A DNA stretch of 64,000 bases from Escherichia phage AV116: the sequence record OR352946.1; one strand, 5' to 3'. Below the pieces are notes generated by a model, which was not told the origin of the DNA, did no database searches, and worked only from the letters and a program-made list of their open reading frames with translations. Shown in pieces: positions 19,624 to 38,449 of this stretch (its first letter is position 1; each line of letters begins with the position of its first letter). Position numbers and translations under genes: made by a program.

Positions 19624-20094
19624 TTAATCATGTTTCCACACCCCATCGGTATTTGACCAAAGTCGCTGATTATCTGATCCTCGCCACAGTTTTTTGGTCG
19701 GAAGATTTTTCTCATACTTCCCATCAATAATAACATCAACATATTTAAGCATTTCTAGTTGTTTAATATCTTCAAACTTATATCCTGTCCACAACCAAAT
19801 GCTTTTATTGGGATAAAGATTTTTTACTGTTTGAACAATGCAATGAATAACATCTCGGTTATCAGGATAGAGAGGGTCACCTCCGGTTATAGTTAATCCT
19901 TCTATATAATCATTATTCAAACATTCAATTAATTGTTCTAGTGTTTCACCAGTGAATGGAATACCATTTCTAGCATTCCATGTTGATTTATTATAACACC
20001 CTTCGCATTTATGCAAACAACCTGTAACGAAAAGAACGACCCTACAACCAGGGCCATTCACAAAATCGCAAGGATAAAATCTATCATAATTCAT
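19624..20094 (-). CDS. nrdG: anaerobic ribonucleotide reductase activating protein NrdG (radical SAM)
   Basis: 156 aa; CLHKCEGCYN (CX3CX2C) near N-terminus; follows nrdD. Confidence 0.93.
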   Translation of the reverse strand: MNYDRFYPCDFVNGPGCRVVLFVTGCLHKCEGCYNKSTWNARNGIPFTGETLEQLIECLNNDYIEGLTITGGDPLYPDNRDVIHCIVQTVKNLYPNKSIWLWTGYKFEDIKQLEMLKYVDVIIDGKYEKNLPTKKLWRGSDNQRLWSNTDGVWKHD

Positions 20095-21908
20095 TGGTGT
20101 TTAACCCTATGCATGATTTCTTTATTTTTACCGAGATTAAATCCGCGTTCGTTCGGATTTCCCAAATAGCCGCATGTTCTTCTTATGGTGTTCATCTTTT
20201 TAGGATCAGTTTCTCCGCAAACTGAACAAACAAATCCATTTTCGGTAGGAGTCATTTCATGAGTACTTCCACATGTAAAACATTTATCTACTGGCATATT
20301 AACACCAAAATAATCTAAATGTTGTGCAGCATAATCCCAGACAGCCTCAAGTCCTTTTAAGTTATTTTTCATATCAGGAAGTTCAACATAAGAAATGTGA
20401 CCACCTGTCGCAATGAAATGATACGGCGCTTCACGAGAAATCTTTTCAAACGGAGTAGTATTTTCTTCTACTGAAACGTGGAAACTGTTAGTGTACCAGC
20501 CTTTATCGGTAACATCTTTTACACTTCCATATTTTTCTGTATCAAGTTTACAGAAGCGATAACAAAGGTTTTCAGCAGGAGTAGAATACAAACTAAAAGC
20601 AAAACCAGTTCTTTCAGTCCACTGTTTAAGATGAGCATTCATTTTAGTTAAAATTTCTTGTCCAATATCACGACCGACAAGAATATTCAATTCATGAATA
20701 CCGATGTATCCTAAAGACACTGAACTTCTACCGTTTTTAAATAGCTCAATTATATCGTCATCAGGTTTAAGACGAACCCCGAATGCACCTTCTTGGTAAA
20801 GAATAGGAGCAACAGTCGCTTTAACTCCTTTTAAGGAACTAATTCTACACATCAAAGCTTCAAAACACAGGTCCATTCGTTCATTGAATAATTCAACAAA
20901 TTTCTGTTCATTGAACTGTGTTCCAATATAAGAATCTAATGCGATACGAGGAAGATTCAGTGTTACAACGCCGAGATTATTACGACCGTCAAGAATTTCA
21001 TTTCCAGTTGAATCTTTCCATACGCTCAAGAAACTACGGCAACCCATCGGAGAAACTGGAACTGAAGAACCGGTAATAGCTTTATTATTCTTAACTGAAA
21101 TAATGTCAGGATACATTCTTTTGCTTGCACATTCTAACGCAAGTTGTTTAATATCATAGTTTGGATCATCTTTATAAAGATTAACACCTTCTTCAAAAAA
21201 CATAACAAGCTTAGGGAAAATAGGAGTTATTCCATCACGTCCAAGGCCTTTAATGCGGTTTTTAAGAATTGCCTTCTGAATCATTCGTTCAGTCCAGTCA
21301 GTTCCCGTACCAAATGTAATTGTCACAAAAGGCGTTTGTCCGTTTGAACTAAAGAGAGTGTTTACTTCATATTCATAAGCTTGGAATGCATCGTATACGT
21401 CTTTTTCTGTTTTAGATTGAGCATAATTCAGAATGTCTGGTATTTGCCATTTTTCTGCATCTTCAACATGTTTAGCGTATGTGCGTTTAACATAAGGAGA
21501 AAGAACTTTATCGACATTCGCAAATGTAGTTCCGCCATACTGGTGTGAAGCAACTTGTGCAGTAATTTGTGCCATAATTGCAGTAGCAACGCCAATAGAT
21601 TTAGGCGTTTCAATTTGAGCATTGCCTAATTTAAATCCATTCTCAAGCATTCCTTTTAAATCTACTAAACAGCAATTAGTAAAAGGCAATGATATACTAT
21701 AATCTAAATCGTGAAAATGAATTAATCCGACATTATGAGCATTTACAATATGGCTCGGAAGAATACTACAAGCGATATGTTTAGAAACAATACCGGCCAT
21801 TAAATCTCTTTTTGTTGGAAAGACACGAGAATCTTTGTTGGCATTTTCGGTATTTAATTCTTTATCTTTATTTGAAATAAAATTTAAAACATCTTTCTCT
21901 AAAGACAT
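20091..21908 (-). CDS. nrdD: anaerobic ribonucleoside-triphosphate reductase NrdD
   Basis: 605 aa, uninterrupted; C-terminal zinc-ribbon cysteines and glycyl-radical region. Confidence 0.95.
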   Translation of the reverse strand: MSLEKDVLNFISNKDKELNTENANKDSRVFPTKRDLMAGIVSKHIACSILPSHIVNAHNVGLIHFHDLDYSISLPFTNCCLVDLKGMLENGFKLGNAQIETPKSIGVATAIMAQITAQVASHQYGGTTFANVDKVLSPYVKRTYAKHVEDAEKWQIPDILNYAQSKTEKDVYDAFQAYEYEVNTLFSSNGQTPFVTITFGTGTDWTERMIQKAILKNRIKGLGRDGITPIFPKLVMFFEEGVNLYKDDPNYDIKQLALECASKRMYPDIISVKNNKAITGSSVPVSPMGCRSFLSVWKDSTGNEILDGRNNLGVVTLNLPRIALDSYIGTQFNEQKFVELFNERMDLCFEALMCRISSLKGVKATVAPILYQEGAFGVRLKPDDDIIELFKNGRSSVSLGYIGIHELNILVGRDIGQEILTKMNAHLKQWTERTGFAFSLYSTPAENLCYRFCKLDTEKYGSVKDVTDKGWYTNSFHVSVEENTTPFEKISREAPYHFIATGGHISYVELPDMKNNLKGLEAVWDYAAQHLDYFGVNMPVDKCFTCGSTHEMTPTENGFVCSVCGETDPKKMNTIRRTCGYLGNPNERGFNLGKNKEIMHRVKHQ

Positions 21909-22720
21909 AATTCTAATTTATCCTTTTGAAATTCTTCGTCTAAATATGGGTTCCAACCCATTTTAAACCTTTTGATGAAATTATCAATTCTAAATTTCGG
22001 TAAATTTAACTCCGCAAAAATAGATGATTTACTTTTAAAATCTGGACCTAAATAATCATATAAAATTTCTGCGTATTTTAACCATAATATATAAGTACCA
22101 GATTTAATTGCGTTCGGAGTTTTCCAAGGTTTTACACCATACATCGGATTTCCACTTCCTTTATGCCTGATAGAAGATGAAATTCCAATTTTAATTTTAG
22201 CTTCCTTTGTATGCGAAAATCCACGATGCGGATTTTCTTTCCAGTATTTTTTAGCAGCTTCTGATATTTTCTTTCTGGCTAAATTAGTATGATGCTTTCC
22301 ATAAAATCCATGATTTTTGCCTTTATTACGATTTCTTTTAATCATGGTTATTGATTGCTTTTCTCTAGTTTCTTTAGAAGGAGAAATACCATATGTCGTA
22401 AATTTGCCATCAGCATATGCTAAATTAAAATACTCTTTATTCCATACATCTTTTTCTATATTCTTTTGAAATTCAGCTTCAATGCTAGTTATTTGTTCAT
22501 CTCCGACTAATTGAAAATATAATATTTCAACTTTCGGCGTTTCTTTCAATAAGGCTTTTTGAAATTCGGAAGATGACGAAGACGAATAATAAAATTTACC
22601 ATTTTTATCAATAATATTCGTTCCATCAAAAGTGCAATTGGTTTTACTTCCAATGTAATAATATGGTGGGGTTTTAGCATTAATTCTATTAATAAATGAT
22701 AGTTTATATACTACATTCAT
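21899..22720 (-). CDS. GIY-YIG homing endonuclease, free-standing
   Basis: VYKLSF...YYYIGSK motif and NUMOD-like NHGFYGKHHT; N-terminus resembles the endonuclease at 10018..10917. Confidence 0.7.
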   Translation of the reverse strand: MNVVYKLSFINRINAKTPPYYYIGSKTNCTFDGTNIIDKNGKFYYSSSSSSEFQKALLKETPKVEILYFQLVGDEQITSIEAEFQKNIEKDVWNKEYFNLAYADGKFTTYGISPSKETREKQSITMIKRNRNKGKNHGFYGKHHTNLARKKISEAAKKYWKENPHRGFSHTKEAKIKIGISSSIRHKGSGNPMYGVKPWKTPNAIKSGTYILWLKYAEILYDYLGPDFKSKSSIFAELNLPKFRIDNFIKRFKMGWNPYLDEEFQKDKLELCL

Positions 22721-33945: not shown

Positions 33946-34255
33946 CTAGACGGTCCACCATAGAATTGCATGCCGCCTTATCTTTAGGTTCCGCCACCGA
34001 GCATTCTAATATTTGCCATTTTTTATAGTATCTTTTAATTAAGGTAGACGCCTTGAACCTACTAGACGCCCCATCTTTTTCTCCGTCTTTATACGCATAT
34101 AACAATTTTTGTGAAAAATCTACTTTACACTCTTGACTTTTACCACAATAATCAGACGCCGTTCTGTTTGTATACTCCGTTACATCAGTATATGTAGTAT
34201 TAGCAAGAGCGTTAAATGAAACCAAGCCAACTATTAAAGCCAACATTTTGGTCAT
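33908..34255 (-). CDS. secreted cysteine-containing protein
   Basis: 115 aa; signal peptide MTKMLALIVGLVSFNALA; four Cys. Confidence 0.5.
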   Translation of the reverse strand: MTKMLALIVGLVSFNALANTTYTDVTEYTNRTASDYCGKSQECKVDFSQKLLYAYKDGEKDGASSRFKASTLIKRYYKKWQILECSVAEPKDKAACNSMVDRLVDSYTRGLAASD

Positions 34256-34794
34256 TCTTTTATTTCCAGTAGTTTATTTGATTTAAGGTAATTAGCCTTT
34301 TCTAGGACTTCAGAAGCATATTTACTTCCAGCACTTGTCTTCCATCCCGCATTATATGAGGATATGGCTTTCCTTATATCCCCGTTATGTATATTTAACC
34401 AATAAGAAAATTCGATATAAGCCCATCTGGCTGAATTAGACCGCTTAGATAGCATTTTCTTAATTTGGGCATCAGTCATATTATAACCAAGCTGGTTAAT
34501 TCTTGCCCTCATTGTTGGTAGATAGTTTTGGAACATTCCATACGCATGGTGACCTTTCTTATCTTTAAGATTAATACCGGCAGATGATTCCTGCCATAGT
34601 ATTGCGGCCATTATGTATCCAAGTCCTTTCTTATGCATATTTTCATGCGTTTTAAATTTTCCGTCCTTAGAAAACTGTTCCCCAAACTGATAAGCATAAT
34701 TCAAGTTATCGAGTTGGACATTACTAAAAGTATGCTCGGAGCTATGTGCTGATAACGAAAGAGCAAATAGACCAGCGAGTAGTGCTTTTCTCAT
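34252..34794 (-). CDS. secreted lytic transglycosylase (SLT domain)
   Basis: 180 aa; signal peptide plus WQESS...YGMFQ...SYNAG motifs of family-1 lytic transglycosylases. Confidence 0.6.
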   Translation of the reverse strand: MRKALLAGLFALSLSAHSSEHTFSNVQLDNLNYAYQFGEQFSKDGKFKTHENMHKKGLGYIMAAILWQESSAGINLKDKKGHHAYGMFQNYLPTMRARINQLGYNMTDAQIKKMLSKRSNSARWAYIEFSYWLNIHNGDIRKAISSYNAGWKTSAGSKYASEVLEKANYLKSNKLLEIKE

Positions 34795-34802
34795 GTTTAC
34801 CT

Positions 34803-35261
34803 CTAGATTTTAATCACTGCTTTAGAAGCTTTTCCTGGTAGTCGTTTACTGTTAATAATAGCCATTCTACATTGAAGAGTCTTCATTTTGAATGCCGGAT
34901 TTTCGCGACAAACTGTAAGTCCTAACCAAAGATTTCCGTCAGTTATTTCTAAACGGCCTGGGCGATATTCGACACCTTCGACAAAATCTTCATCAACATC
35001 CGGACGTGCCGGCATTGATAAAAATTCTGCAACTTCTTTAACGTGATTTTTTACTTTATGAAATAATTCAAAAACGTAATTCTCATCTATTTCTCTCTGG
35101 ATGGCACGATCTAAGAGATGTTGAGAATACTTGATATGAAAGCCTGGTAGTCCAAGAGACTTTGCAGCATCTTTTATACCGGCATTTATTTTGCGGAACT
35201 CCGTTTCAAAGATTCGACGGAGTTTATTACGGCGGATAAAAACATCCGAATTGATAGTCAT
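34803..35261 (-). CDS. regB: RegB endoribonuclease
   Basis: 152 aa; close match to T4 RegB (FIRRNKLRR.FE.EFR...HLLDRAIQREIDE.YVFELFHK). Confidence 0.93.
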   Translation of the reverse strand: MTINSDVFIRRNKLRRIFETEFRKINAGIKDAAKSLGLPGFHIKYSQHLLDRAIQREIDENYVFELFHKVKNHVKEVAEFLSMPARPDVDEDFVEGVEYRPGRLEITDGNLWLGLTVCRENPAFKMKTLQCRMAIINSKRLPGKASKAVIKI

Positions 35262-35322
35262 TTTGATTTCTCCTCTAGTTGACAGGTCTATAGTAACACA
35301 ACTAGAGGAGAAGTAAACTACT

Positions 35323-35538
35323 TTATTGATAAAATGGAGTTAAAGCCCAGGATTCTTTAGATACTATATTGGCGAAATGCCTCATCTCTTCGATTTGGCG
35401 ACGACGCTGGTCAGCATAGTCTTCTTCGCCTTCTTCCTTACAGTCTTCAAGGTCTTCTTCAAGATACTTTAAGTATTCACTACAAATTTTGTTGACCTTT
35501 TCTTGGAAGTCCAATAACCCAGTAATAGTAGAAGCCAT
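35323..35538 (-). CDS. hypothetical protein
   Basis: 71-aa acidic ORF. Confidence 0.4.
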   Translation of the reverse strand: MASTITGLLDFQEKVNKICSEYLKYLEEDLEDCKEEGEEDYADQRRRQIEEMRHFANIVSKESWALTPFYQ

Positions 35539-35804
35539 TAGTATTTTTCCTCAGGTCGAAATACCGCACGACATGCCCACATGCTGGCTTCTTTTAGATG
35601 TTGCTTAGCATACTTAAGAGCCTGCACTGCATCCATATCTTCTTTGGTTTGTTGCTCTGTTTCATTTTCTTTCAAGATATATGCTTCTTCAATCAGAGCA
35701 TCAAACATCAATCCAAGACGGACTTCGGCATCTTTAATAGCGTTCACTTTACTGATTTTATCATCGGTATGCGGCTTGTAGCCTTTGATGTCTTCAATCG
35801 ACAT
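35538..35804 (-). CDS. hypothetical protein
   Basis: Track ORF 35538..35972 overlaps its neighbour; internal Met (MSIEDIKGY) chosen. Confidence 0.35.
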   Translation of the reverse strand: MSIEDIKGYKPHTDDKISKVNAIKDAEVRLGLMFDALIEEAYILKENETEQQTKEDMDAVQALKYAKQHLKEASMWACRAVFRPEEKY

Positions 35805-36018
35805 AAGGAATTTCCTCATCAGTGGCAAGGTCATATTCGACCAATTGGATAGGCTCATTAATACCATATCCACGTACAGTGATATCGGTTGACGGATAGT
35901 TTCCAGTAATATCACCCATTCTAAATGCTTCAATGAATGATTGCTCGCCTGAGCAACTAAACCAGGCGGCAAAACATTTTAAAACATCTTCAGACCCTTC
36001 TATAATCAATTTAGCCAT
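35794..36018 (-). CDS. hypothetical protein
   Basis: 74-aa ORF translationally coupled to the GrcA-like gene. Confidence 0.4.
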   Translation of the reverse strand: MAKLIIEGSEDVLKCFAAWFSCSGEQSFIEAFRMGDITGNYPSTDITVRGYGINEPIQLVEYDLATDEEIPYVD

Positions 36019-36380
36019 TATAGACTCTCAGTAAAGGTACGAGCGATAACGTCGCGCTGCTGTTCCGGAGTCAGAGAGTTAAAGCGAACTGCATAACCGG
36101 ATACACGGATGGTCAGCTGCGGATATTTTTCTGGATGCTTAACTGCATCTTCTAGAGTTTCACGACGCAGAACGTTAACGTTCAGATGTTGACCACCTTC
36201 AATTTTAACTTTAGGTTGATGTTCAATTTCAATTTCACGGGCATGCAAACCGTAGAAAATTTCCGGGTCTACAATAGTGTCTTCTTTAAAAGTCTTAGAG
36301 ACAATAATCCGGGCTTGAGTACCATCTTCAAAATAAATAGTGCCTTTATGTGCACCTTCAAGAATTTGATATGCTTTCAT
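36018..36380 (-). CDS. autonomous glycyl radical cofactor (GrcA/YfiD-like)
   Basis: 120 aa; C-terminal [59 protein letters not shown] carries the RVSGYAV glycyl-radical motif. Confidence 0.8.
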
Positions 36381-36386
36381 ATAACC

Positions 36387-36758
36387 TCAATTAGAAAATA
36401 AATTTATCCAAGTTTTTTCTTTAATCAAAAATGGGTCGGAATTAAACGCCATTAAACTTTGAGTGATTAATCCCTTAAATGGCCCATCAATAAATTCCAT
36501 TTTGAAATGCGGAATACTAGTCATCAACCGTGCATTAGGAGCAGTACAAAGAACCTGCTGCCCTGCGAACGGACCTTTAGTCAAACGATATCGTTTAGGT
36601 TTAAAATGGTAAATCTCGTAATTTTCTACAAGAGCCCTTTTATTGCATACTGGGCTGTTATAACAATACTCAAAAACTTCAATAGTGGTCATCATTGCAT
36701 TCCAATCACAAAAAATTGAGGACGAGCAATACCGCCGATGCAATATTTGCTTTTGCAA
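36387..36758 (-). CDS. hypothetical protein
   Basis: 123-aa ORF. Confidence 0.45.
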   Translation of the reverse strand: MQKQILHRRYCSSSIFCDWNAMMTTIEVFEYCYNSPVCNKRALVENYEIYHFKPKRYRLTKGPFAGQQVLCTAPNARLMTSIPHFKMEFIDGPFKGLITQSLMAFNSDPFLIKEKTWINLFSN

Positions 36759-37231
36759 CAGTGTTGGACTGTTTTAATATGGACATTGTAAATCTTATCC
36801 ATATCAGGAGCTTTAATAGGCTCGTCAATTATGTACAGAATACGAGAAAGCGTTAATCCACGGAATTTAGAACCTTCATTGCCAATAAAACTACGAACAG
36901 AATCAGTAAATAAACGGAATCGAATATCGTCGCTAGAATAACGAGAAAATTCTTTTTTAATGTTGCCGGCAGAAATTTTAGCATAAGCTGAAGTATTAGA
37001 AAGAACAATAACTGTTCCACCATCATACAGCCAATTAACAGCAAAATTAGTTACTGCGGTCGATTTACCTGATTGTCTGCCGCCGTCTAAACGAAGTGTA
37101 CAGTACTGCTTGAGTACGTCTTCAAATGGTGGGACATAACCGTTCTTACAAATTTCTTCTACTCTAGCATCAGAATGGTGTGTAAAAGCATTCATCAGGG
37201 ATAGATAAGGACCAGTTAAAAATGTTCTCAT
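36692..37231 (-). CDS. P-loop-containing hypothetical protein
   Basis: 179 aa; GGRQSGKST Walker A-like motif and IDEP Walker B-like motif. Confidence 0.45.
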   Translation of the reverse strand: MRTFLTGPYLSLMNAFTHHSDARVEEICKNGYVPPFEDVLKQYCTLRLDGGRQSGKSTAVTNFAVNWLYDGGTVIVLSNTSAYAKISAGNIKKEFSRYSSDDIRFRLFTDSVRSFIGNEGSKFRGLTLSRILYIIDEPIKAPDMDKIYNVHIKTVQHCCKSKYCIGGIARPQFFVIGMQ

Positions 37232-37344
37232 TTAGTTTCTCTTTTAGGTTGGGCCATTCCGTGGCGCATGAATTGTCCATTTCTGTATTTACCCCTCCAA
37301 GTAATTATGAATATACTATCACAATTCTAGGAGAAAGTAAACTG

Positions 37345-37647
37345 TTATTTACCTTTAATTACTTTAGCTGCTTCGATAGCCGCTTGCTGAAGGTCATCCA
37401 TAGACATACCAAATTTAGAAGCAAAGTTATCAATTTTCTTTTCGACAGCATTCAAAGGCTTGGCCTGTTTACCTTCATTAGCGCCAGGAAGAGCGAGAAT
37501 ACGCTCTTTGTCAATATAAAGGCTTACAAGTTTCTTACGGTCTTTATCGGACAAATCATGAAATGAATGGGCCTTTTTATTTATAGCGGCTTCTAATTTA
37601 CCTGCACTCACTCGCGCTTCAGTAATAAATTCTTGATATGTTTTCAT
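37345..37647 (-). CDS. ipII: internal protein II-like (capsid-targeted)
   Basis: 100 aa; N-terminal MKTYQEFITEA capsid-targeting sequence; resembles T4 IPII. Confidence 0.75.
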   Translation of the reverse strand: MKTYQEFITEARVSAGKLEAAINKKAHSFHDLSDKDRKKLVSLYIDKERILALPGANEGKQAKPLNAVEKKIDNFASKFGMSMDDLQQAAIEAAKVIKGK

Positions 37648-37710
37648 TTTTGTTTCCTTGTTTGTTTTGATAGAGTAATTATACCATATTAATACTTAAG
37701 CGTAAACAAT

Positions 37711-37971
37711 TTAAGCTTTACCGCCAGAAATAATTCCGAAGTTGTTAAAATCGTATCCAATATCGTCAACATCTACTTTAGGACTTACTACAACATAAGC
37801 AATTTCACTACGTTTTGCATAGGTGTTGATTTCTTTACCATCGCCACCTAAGAAAGAATACCCATTACGTTTTAATGAGCCAAAGTCTTCGGCATCACCA
37901 ATGAAAGCTTTAACTTTAAATTTAGGACCTTTGGCATCTGCTTCAGCGATAAATTCTTGATACATTTTCAT
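37711..37971 (-). CDS. internal protein with capsid-targeting sequence
   Basis: 86 aa; N-terminal MKMYQEFIAEA. Confidence 0.6.
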   Translation of the reverse strand: MKMYQEFIAEADAKGPKFKVKAFIGDAEDFGSLKRNGYSFLGGDGKEINTYAKRSEIAYVVVSPKVDVDDIGYDFNNFGIISGGKA

Positions 37972-37977
37972 TTTTCC

Positions 37978-38391
37978 TTAGTAAATTGATTTACCATAGT
38001 ATTTGTACCAAGTCGGACGTTGAGCAATTTTTTCATCTAAGCGTGCTTGACTTATCGCAATGGACGCTTCAGACGGGACGTAATTATTACGAAATTCTAT
38101 AGGAATGTCGGAAATATCCTGGACAGTCGTGTCCTTGATTTTGAAACCACGTTTCAAACATTCGGCTATTAGCTCGATTTGACGTAAACGTAAAAATTCG
38201 AGTTTGTCGTAAAAGAATGTTACGTGACCTGTGCCTAAGATAAATGTTGGAGAGATTTTAAAATCCTTTACACGTTTACCGTTTTGAACATGTTTACGGA
38301 CTGCACCAAATACGCGTGGTAATTCACGATACTCAGCCATAAGATGTTGGTCGGTCAGTTCAGAAACAAGTGTTAAATTGATACGGGTCAT
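37978..38391 (-). CDS. denV: pyrimidine dimer DNA glycosylase (endonuclease V) DenV
   Basis: Close match to T4 DenV ([34 protein letters not shown]); start set at internal Met by homology. Confidence 0.95.
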
Positions 38392-38449
38392 AATTTCCTC
38401 CAAGTAGTTGATGAATGTATAGTATCAAAGTCCTTGGAGGAAGTAAACA

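Follow-up and report, generated by a model that had tools for sequence, protein, structure and literature searches.

A vs.6/Y06I-type spare-part gene of Escherichia phage AV116 with a 3′ half probably overwritten by E. coli grcA DNA

Introduction

A 120-codon gene in the genome of Escherichia phage AV116 (sequence record OR352946.1) encodes a protein with a host-like C-terminal half and a divergent N-terminal half, which raises the question of whether the phage recently captured a host gene or owns an older gene that was altered in part, and of what the protein would do in an infected cell. A preliminary description, made from the letters of the 64,000-nucleotide stretch analyzed here (hereafter, the window), had called the product a GrcA-like glycyl-radical spare part, had proposed recent host capture, and had suggested that it may rescue oxygen-damaged pyruvate formate-lyase (PFL) or support anaerobic metabolism alongside the phage NrdD/NrdG proteins. 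We found that the gene is the ortholog of T4 vs.6 (Y06I), a gene that is annotated as a matter of routine and whose biochemical role was established in 2001. The reading that best joins our results, and in which we have high confidence, is that vs.6/Y06I is a PFL spare part with an old phage 5′ half and a 3′ half that was recently overwritten by E. coli grcA DNA. This host-derived conversion is a tidy but modest addition, the gene and its role themselves not being new.

Knappe and co-workers showed that E. coli YfiD (GrcA) and T4 Y06I both reactivate O2-cleaved PFL after the PFL-activating enzyme (PFL-AE) has given them a glycyl radical (Wagner et al. 2001, BBRC 285:456, as cited in PMC8683613). 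In the same source, these two are given as the only validated spare-part proteins, and YfiD is divided into a structured domain (residues 61–127), which replaces the lost PflB C-terminus, and a disordered segment (residues 1–60), which promotes activation and binding to the cleaved PFL (PMC8683613). The radical is passed from Gly102 of GrcA to Cys419 of PflB, according to PMC12338860. Formate is the reductant of class III ribonucleotide reductases, T4 NrdD among them (PMC4493059).

Results

The window encodes an ortholog of T4 vs.6

The open reading frame runs from an ATG start to a TAA stop and exactly fills its interval on the minus strand (Table 1). Its GAGG ribosome-binding site overlaps the TGA stop codon of the preceding gene, vs.7; at the other end, the stop codon (TAA) shares bases with the start codon (ATG) of the following gene in the sequence TAATG. 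Scans of the surrounding sequence revealed neither a sigma-70-like promoter nor a terminator above chance. Since no such promoter lies nearby, vs.6 is probably co-transcribed with vs.8–vs.7.

Table 1. Coordinates of vs.6, its subdivisions, and the phage anaerobic ribonucleotide reductase genes in the window
Feature	Position	Strand	Basis
vs.6/Y06I ortholog, 120-aa GrcA-like autonomous glycyl radical cofactor	36018..36380, stop codon included	-	ORF, Pfam, TIGR04365, T4 synteny
GAGG Shine-Dalgarno/ribosome-binding site	36385..36388	-	4 nt before the vs.6 ATG; sequence inspection
RVSGYAV glycyl-radical loop, residues 92–98	36087..36107	-	Alignments and sequence
Codons 1–60, phage-lineage N-terminal half (...ARIIVSKT), counterpart of the disordered, cleaved-PFL-binding YfiD N-terminus	36201..36380	-	
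Codons 61–120, glycyl-radical domain, equal to E. coli GrcA 68–127 in protein; structured domain replacing PflB 696–759	36021..36200	-	
Putative host-derived conversion tract, gene nt 179–353	36028..36202	-	172/175 nt as in E. coli grcA
Phage NrdD, class III ribonucleotide reductase, glycyl radical enzyme using formate	20091..21908	-	Pfam NRDD, E = 5.4e-170
Phage NrdG, radical-SAM activase of NrdD	19624..20094	-	Pfam Fer4_12 / Radical_SAM

The product is a small stand-alone protein (~14 kDa) with a PflB-type glycyl-radical C-terminal half, as is characteristic of the GrcA/YfiD family (TIGR04365; IPR011140). The Pfam Gly_radical model (PF01228) matched residues 60–101 (E = 2.3e-18), the NMR structure of E. 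coli YfiD/GrcA (6OWR) matched with E = 1.8e-42 over 6OWR residues 27–127, and PflB 696–759 aligned with residues 57–120 (E = 3e-26). The NCBIfam GrcA model TIGR04365 gave E = 1.3e-46 and 158 bits, a score that stays under the equivalog cut-off of 170 bits because the N-terminal half is divergent. Residues 61–120 are identical to E. coli GrcA 68–127 at all 60 positions, and within this segment Gly95 (codon GGT, 36096–36098), the counterpart of YfiD/GrcA Gly102 and PflB Gly734, is intact in its RVSGYAV loop. Conversely, residues 1–60 share only 14 of 40 aligned positions (~35%) with host GrcA, although at a BLASTP E value of 1e-6 the two remain recognizably homologous. Thus, the preliminary description was correct as to the spare-part family, the host-like C-terminus with its RVSGYAV motif, the conserved glycine, and the divergent N-terminus.

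The T4 vs.6 product (NP_049730; NC_000866 63557–63919) has the same length and is identical at 113 of 120 residues (94.2%). The similarity extends over the full length, and the surrounding genes lie in the T4 order (regB, vs.3, vs.4, vs.5, vs.6, vs.7, vs.8, denV), vs.6 being located between vs.7 and vs.5 in both phages. Seven substitutions (A10T, T21I, T35S, I36F, H54P, K57T, and R73H) distinguish the T4 protein; only the last of these interrupts the identity of its C-terminal domain with the host protein, residue 73 being Arg in the window protein, as in E. coli, and His in T4. PHROG 1209 also matched the product over its full length (E = 5.8e-63). From these comparisons, we assign the window protein to the T4 Vs.6/Y06I group and predict that it is functionally a GrcA, the curated HMM cut-off being the only point at which it falls short.

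The window phage is of the T4 type, and close relatives are numerous. Over the 3 kb around vs.6, the window shares 99.5% identity with Escherichia phage AV114 and 96.7% with the Mosigvirus Shigella phage phi25-307, the protein of phage NRG-P0074 is 100% identical to the window product, and a vs.6 homolog is encoded in 1,588 phage records. T4 vs.6 is annotated as "autonomous glycyl radical cofactor GrcA," RefSeq names the T4 and phi25-307 orthologs GrcA, and a GrcA annotation is already present in hundreds of T-even genomes. Naming is nevertheless inconsistent: PHROG 1209 is labeled "unknown function," and many GenBank records variously read "hypothetical protein," "pyruvate formate-lyase," "acetyltransferase," or "ribonucleotide reductase subunit."

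The 3′ half of vs.6 closely matches E. coli grcA at the nucleotide level

We compared the last 180 nt of vs.6 with E. coli grcA and found six differences, all of them synonymous, so that 54 of the 60 codons are identical; T4 differs at three positions and phi25-307 at seven. Over the same 180 nt, 13 differences separate the grcA genes of E. coli and its nearest non-Escherichia neighbor, and 29 separate those of E. coli and Salmonella. Within the putative tract, 3 of 175 nt differ, and the longest exact run covers 104 nt (36028–36131). The 5′ boundary is sharp, with 16 differences in the 42 positions of gene nt 139–180 versus 6 in the 180 positions of the last 60 codons (Fisher p = 6e-9), and the last three codons of vs.6 are also changed relative to E. 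coli grcA. The tract starts exactly at the point from which phage and host resemble each other closely enough for recombination.

The identity exceeds what constraint on the protein would impose, because Cronobacter phage leB has 29 synonymous differences from E. coli (dS 1.5) although its 60 residues are the same. The dS values to E. coli are 0.05–0.17 for T4, the window phage, and phi25-307, whereas between E. coli and any other genus dS is at least 0.36. Base composition changes within the gene as well: the GC content is 34.4% in the 5′ half and 47.8% in the 3′ half, the latter as compared with 36.9% for the window average, a comparison that the preliminary description had recommended, and with 50% for the same segment of E. 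coli grcA. The 3′ half thereby ranks in the top 0.1% of the 180-nt windows of the whole stretch.

When the entire 64 kb was searched by megablast against 5,426 complete E. coli genomes, the sole match was at ~36010–36202, and it fell on grcA in every genome. In the reverse search, the last 185 nt of E. coli grcA matched 752 phage records, 638 of them at 95% identity or more (best, 99.5%), and some T-even contigs in IMG/VR share exact runs of 170–173 nt with E. coli. In a neighbor-joining tree of 11 phage and 26 host sequences (180 sites, p-distances), T4, the window phage, phi25-307, E. coli, and Escherichia sp. formed one clade inside the hosts in 295 of 300 bootstraps; the genes of Slopekvirus, Pseudotevenvirus, Karamvirus, Krischvirus, T5-like, and Aeromonas phages were placed outside the host clade.

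The resemblance of the C-terminal half to the host is far beyond chance. As judged from these comparisons, the transfer is best read as having run from host to phage, since grcA takes its normal place among the enterobacterial hosts and the phage tract is nested within Escherichia. Transfer from phage to host was considered and rejected, E. coli grcA lying in the normal Enterobacteriaceae host clade. The C-terminus of PflB (696–759; 1H16, 2PFL) has the same fold element and radical loop, but about a dozen positions differ and the pflB DNA is only ~78% identical; the donor gene was grcA rather than pflB. Together, these results indicate that the segment at 36028–36202 was recently overwritten by E. 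coli grcA DNA via homologous recombination; the event was thus a gene conversion that changed part of a gene which the phage already had, and not the capture of a whole host gene.

A second conversion in a Klebsiella phage and the apparent spread of the vs.6 allele

A comparable tract was found in Klebsiella phage pKp20 (Jiaodavirus; pKp20 locus 481–663 compared with K. pneumoniae grcA locus 200–583), in which the 3′ part of the homolog is 96% identical to K. pneumoniae grcA over 173 nt and 87% identical to E. coli grcA. From codon 61 onward, pKp20 matches K. pneumoniae grcA exactly for 101 nt, and a single difference separates them in gene nt 184–300, where all other host species of our panel have 11 or more differences from K. 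pneumoniae. Besides one K. pneumoniae record, the panel comprised the 80 species whose GrcA is nearest to that of E. coli, with Cronobacter, C. freundii, and E. cloacae absent from it; the K. pneumoniae grcA was taken from a chromosome filed as a plasmid in PLSDB. These sequence matches support well the view that host-to-phage conversion of the glycyl-radical domain happened at least twice, and in both clear cases the donor is the phage's own host species.

A third host-specific conversion may be represented by the IMG/VR contig IMGVR_UViG_2706794630_000006, the tract of which is closest, among the hosts in the panel, to a Yersinia grcA (16 differences in 180 positions; next best, 22). For the other phage lineages, no close donor was found in the host panel, which left out their true hosts. 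In the Pseudotevenvirus pair of Cronobacter phage leB and Citrobacter phage Miller, the 3′ halves are 30 nt apart (dS 1.27) and the 5′ halves 20 nt apart (dS 0.62); the 3′ halves are thus more diverged than the 5′ halves despite a much stronger constraint on the 3′ protein sequence. This hints that in leB or Miller, too, a donor outside the sampled set supplied a new 3′ half.

Between T4 and the window phage, dS in vs.6 is 0.15 for the 3′ half and 0.35 for the 5′ half, values that rest on small numbers in mosaic T-even genomes. For the flanking genes vs.1, regB, vs.3, vs.5, vs.7, vs.8, and denV (34252–38403), dS to T4 is 0.76–2.3 (pooled, 1.1), with amino-acid identities of 39–91%. Although the numbers are small, it seems that the spread of the vs.6 allele through the T-even phages is more recent than that of the neighboring genes.

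Whether such conversions benefit the phage is a separate matter. That the tracts are non-adaptive by-products of occasional conversion, spread by drift or hitch-hiking with no tuning to the host, is a serious possibility to which we give somewhat less than an even chance. In both lineages the tracts start exactly where phage–host homology begins, at codon 61–62; the E. coli and K. pneumoniae GrcA proteins differ at only two residues of the glycyl-radical domain; and Krischvirus, Slopekvirus, and T5-like phages, which infect the same hosts, show no recent tract when judged against the host panel. All of this would be expected of conversion without selection. On the other hand, 638 or more of the deposited phage genomes have the converted allele, both clear cases match the phage's own host species, and in the T4-type phages and both Klebsiella phages the residues at the two variable positions (E/L and K/E) are those of the host.

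In an adaptive reading, the glycyl-radical half would be repeatedly re-copied from the current host, keeping the spare part exactly matched to the local PflB/PflA, so that after host shut-off PFL would go on supplying formate and acetyl-CoA to NrdD and energy metabolism where oxygen is low, as in the gut. The donors would then be E. coli grcA for Tequatrovirus and Mosigvirus, K. pneumoniae grcA for Jiaodavirus, and perhaps a Yersinia-like gene for the one IMG/VR contig. We regard this proposal as speculative and, on present evidence, rather unlikely to hold in full.

Proposed role of the vs.6 product in PFL repair

T4-type phages shut off host gene expression, and PFL is the source of formate. 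Judging from the work on YfiD and Y06I, the vs.6 product could act as follows. Once O2 had cleaved host PflB at the Gly734 radical, the C-terminal domain of the phage protein would insert in place of the lost PflB C-terminus, host PflA would install a radical on Gly95, and the radical would move to PflB Cys419, allowing pyruvate cleavage to acetyl-CoA and formate to resume; the N-terminal half would aid docking to the damaged PflB. The activase PflA and the target PflB are presumably the same as for E. coli GrcA, and because the working domain is an exact copy of that of the host, it should fit both of them. A spare part supplied by the phage would make sense because host expression is shut off: the phage copy might keep the pool of spare parts filled as oxygen fluctuates, and PFL running in microaerobic or anaerobic infection. 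The supply of ATP, acetyl-CoA, and formate would then be maintained, with formate serving as the reductant for the phage's own NrdD. The rescue of O2-damaged PFL, suggested in the preliminary description, has been demonstrated biochemically, in vitro, for the T4 ortholog Y06I, as reported in PMC8683613, and by analogy it is probable for the window protein. The searchable literature, which is incomplete, yielded no in vivo phenotype of a vs.6 deletion.

Both NrdD and NrdG, named alongside the spare part in the preliminary description, are indeed encoded in the window, with nrdD ~14 kb from vs.6. Because NrdD uses formate, PFL makes formate, and the window encodes NrdD/NrdG, PFL repair may also serve phage dNTP synthesis beside energy supply. 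T5-like phages that carry a vs.6 homolog also carry NrdD. In Aeromonas phage Ah1 (locus 1–684), the vs.6 homolog shares bases with the end of nrdG, and nrdC and nrdH come after it, a neighborhood that links the spare-part protein with the gene cluster for anaerobic nucleotide reduction.

The association could be taken one step further, such that the vs.6 product would serve phage NrdD and not host PFL: it could be a substrate of NrdG, or O2-cleaved NrdD could take it up as a spare part. The gene order in Ah1, directly after nrdG and before nrdC/nrdH, is compatible with this, a comparative paper of 2006 speculated on a role in nucleotide metabolism (PMC1524935), and the examined lineages with a vs.6 gene (T4-type and T5-like) also have NrdD. 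However, this co-occurrence is equally explained by the supply of formate from PFL to NrdD, and the C-terminal domain showed no significant similarity to the NrdD of the window (BLASTP E = 5.9), as opposed to being identical to GrcA and closely similar to PflB 696–759. In addition, the T4 protein works with PFL and PFL-AE, according to PMC8683613. We therefore consider an NrdD-directed function very unlikely and retain host PFL as the predicted target.

The 5′ half of vs.6 belongs to an old phage lineage

The N-terminal half of the product retains detectable homology with that of GrcA/YfiD, a profile of the phage N-termini matching the host N-termini with E of ~3e-5 (Z = 1e6), although the phage version is ~7 residues shorter and strongly diverged. 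This phage-type N-terminus is common to several Straboviridae genera and occurs, more distantly related, in T5-like (Demerecviridae) and Aeromonas phages. We detected no nucleotide similarity to E. coli before gene nt 141. Between the window phage and T4, dN/dS in the 5′ half is ~0.13, indicating purifying selection. The best reading of these sequence data is that vs.6 is an old phage gene, ultimately of grcA/pflB origin.

As an alternative, the whole gene might have been taken recently from E. coli, with the N-terminal half then diverging fast in the phage. Since the N-terminal halves are homologous, a whole-gene origin from a grcA-like gene is likely at some time. A recent date, however, is hard to reconcile with the presence of the phage-type N-terminus in distant lineages (T5-like and Aeromonas phages) whose 3′ halves are not E. 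coli-like, with the lack of E. coli nucleotide similarity before gene nt 141 and the 16 of 42 differences in gene nt 139–180, or with a 5′ half under purifying selection and not in decay, and we judge recent whole-gene capture to be highly improbable. The recent host capture put forward in the preliminary description is thus upheld for the 3′ half, by nucleotide identity, GC content, and phylogeny, and not for the gene as a whole, which is old in phages.

Least credible of all, and in effect already refuted, is that purifying selection alone on an anciently acquired protein produced the resemblance, the host having contributed no DNA in recent time: the protein sequence of the domain is extremely conserved across all hosts and phages (10 phage homologs share 43 invariant columns), but synonymous sites are conserved too (dS 0.05–0.17 versus 1.5 for the Cronobacter phage with the same peptide), the boundaries of identity are sharp and accompanied by a GC step, and grcA synonymous sites are not invariant across Enterobacteriaceae.

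Discussion

Comparison with known systems

The reading that we favor, an old phage gene with a host-derived 3′ half, sets the vs.6 product apart from E. coli GrcA (YfiD; 6OWR) in only one half. Domain 68–127 is identical, at 97–98% nucleotide identity and with the same radical glycine and loop, whereas the phage N-terminal half is 7 residues shorter and ~35% identical; furthermore, the phage protein is encoded in an early-gene cluster and is not under host control.

For the evolutionary pattern, the closest analogy appears to be recombination at cyanophage psbA. The cyanophage psbA/psbD genes are host-like metabolic genes with intragenic host–phage recombination (Sullivan et al. 2006, PMC1484495). 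In psbA, as here, a T4-like lytic phage carries a damage-prone host protein that sustains host energy metabolism, and segments are exchanged with the host. The systems differ in that photosystem II is concerned there and fermentative PFL here, and in that the vs.6 tract makes up just one half, with sharp limits, of a gene that is very small, two phage genera each matching their own host species. We found no description of the nucleotide-level mosaic of vs.6 or of a host-tracking conversion tract in the searchable literature, which is incomplete.

A strictly lytic phage that destroys host DNA still has a 175-nt tract that is 98% identical to a host gene, and vs.6 offers a clean, small example of ongoing host-to-phage gene conversion in an auxiliary metabolic gene. 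The tract could be used to date T-even host associations or to ask whether spare parts must match their target exactly. The locus also draws attention to a possible link between PFL repair and the formate used in phage anaerobic ribonucleotide reduction.

Other features of the window and of the records searched

The ORF at 35538–35972 on the minus strand, two genes downstream of vs.6 at the position of T4 vs.4, contains a Pfam Acb2/Tad1 hairpin domain (E = 3.3e-17) and is a homolog of the anti-CBASS/anti-Thoeris nucleotide-sponge family; its listed TTG start is probably too far upstream. Two tandem small ORFs on the same strand (37345–37647 and 37711–37971) begin with MKTYQEFITEA and MKMYQEFIAEA, which we take to resemble the capsid-targeting leader of T4 internal proteins. 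The interval from vs.8 to denV varies in length, 3001 nt of the window spanning 3621–4466 nt in the closest relatives, and with the ORFs at 37345–37971 it looks like a variable internal-protein cassette.

In PLSDB, several "plasmid" records bearing grcA/pflB are whole chromosomes or chromosome fragments, for example CP125156.1 (5.37 Mb), an artefact of that database. Directly upstream of nrdD and overlapping its start lies a 273-aa ORF (21899–22720, minus strand) with a NUMOD3 motif of the homing-endonuclease type; nrdD itself is uninterrupted and encodes 605 aa.
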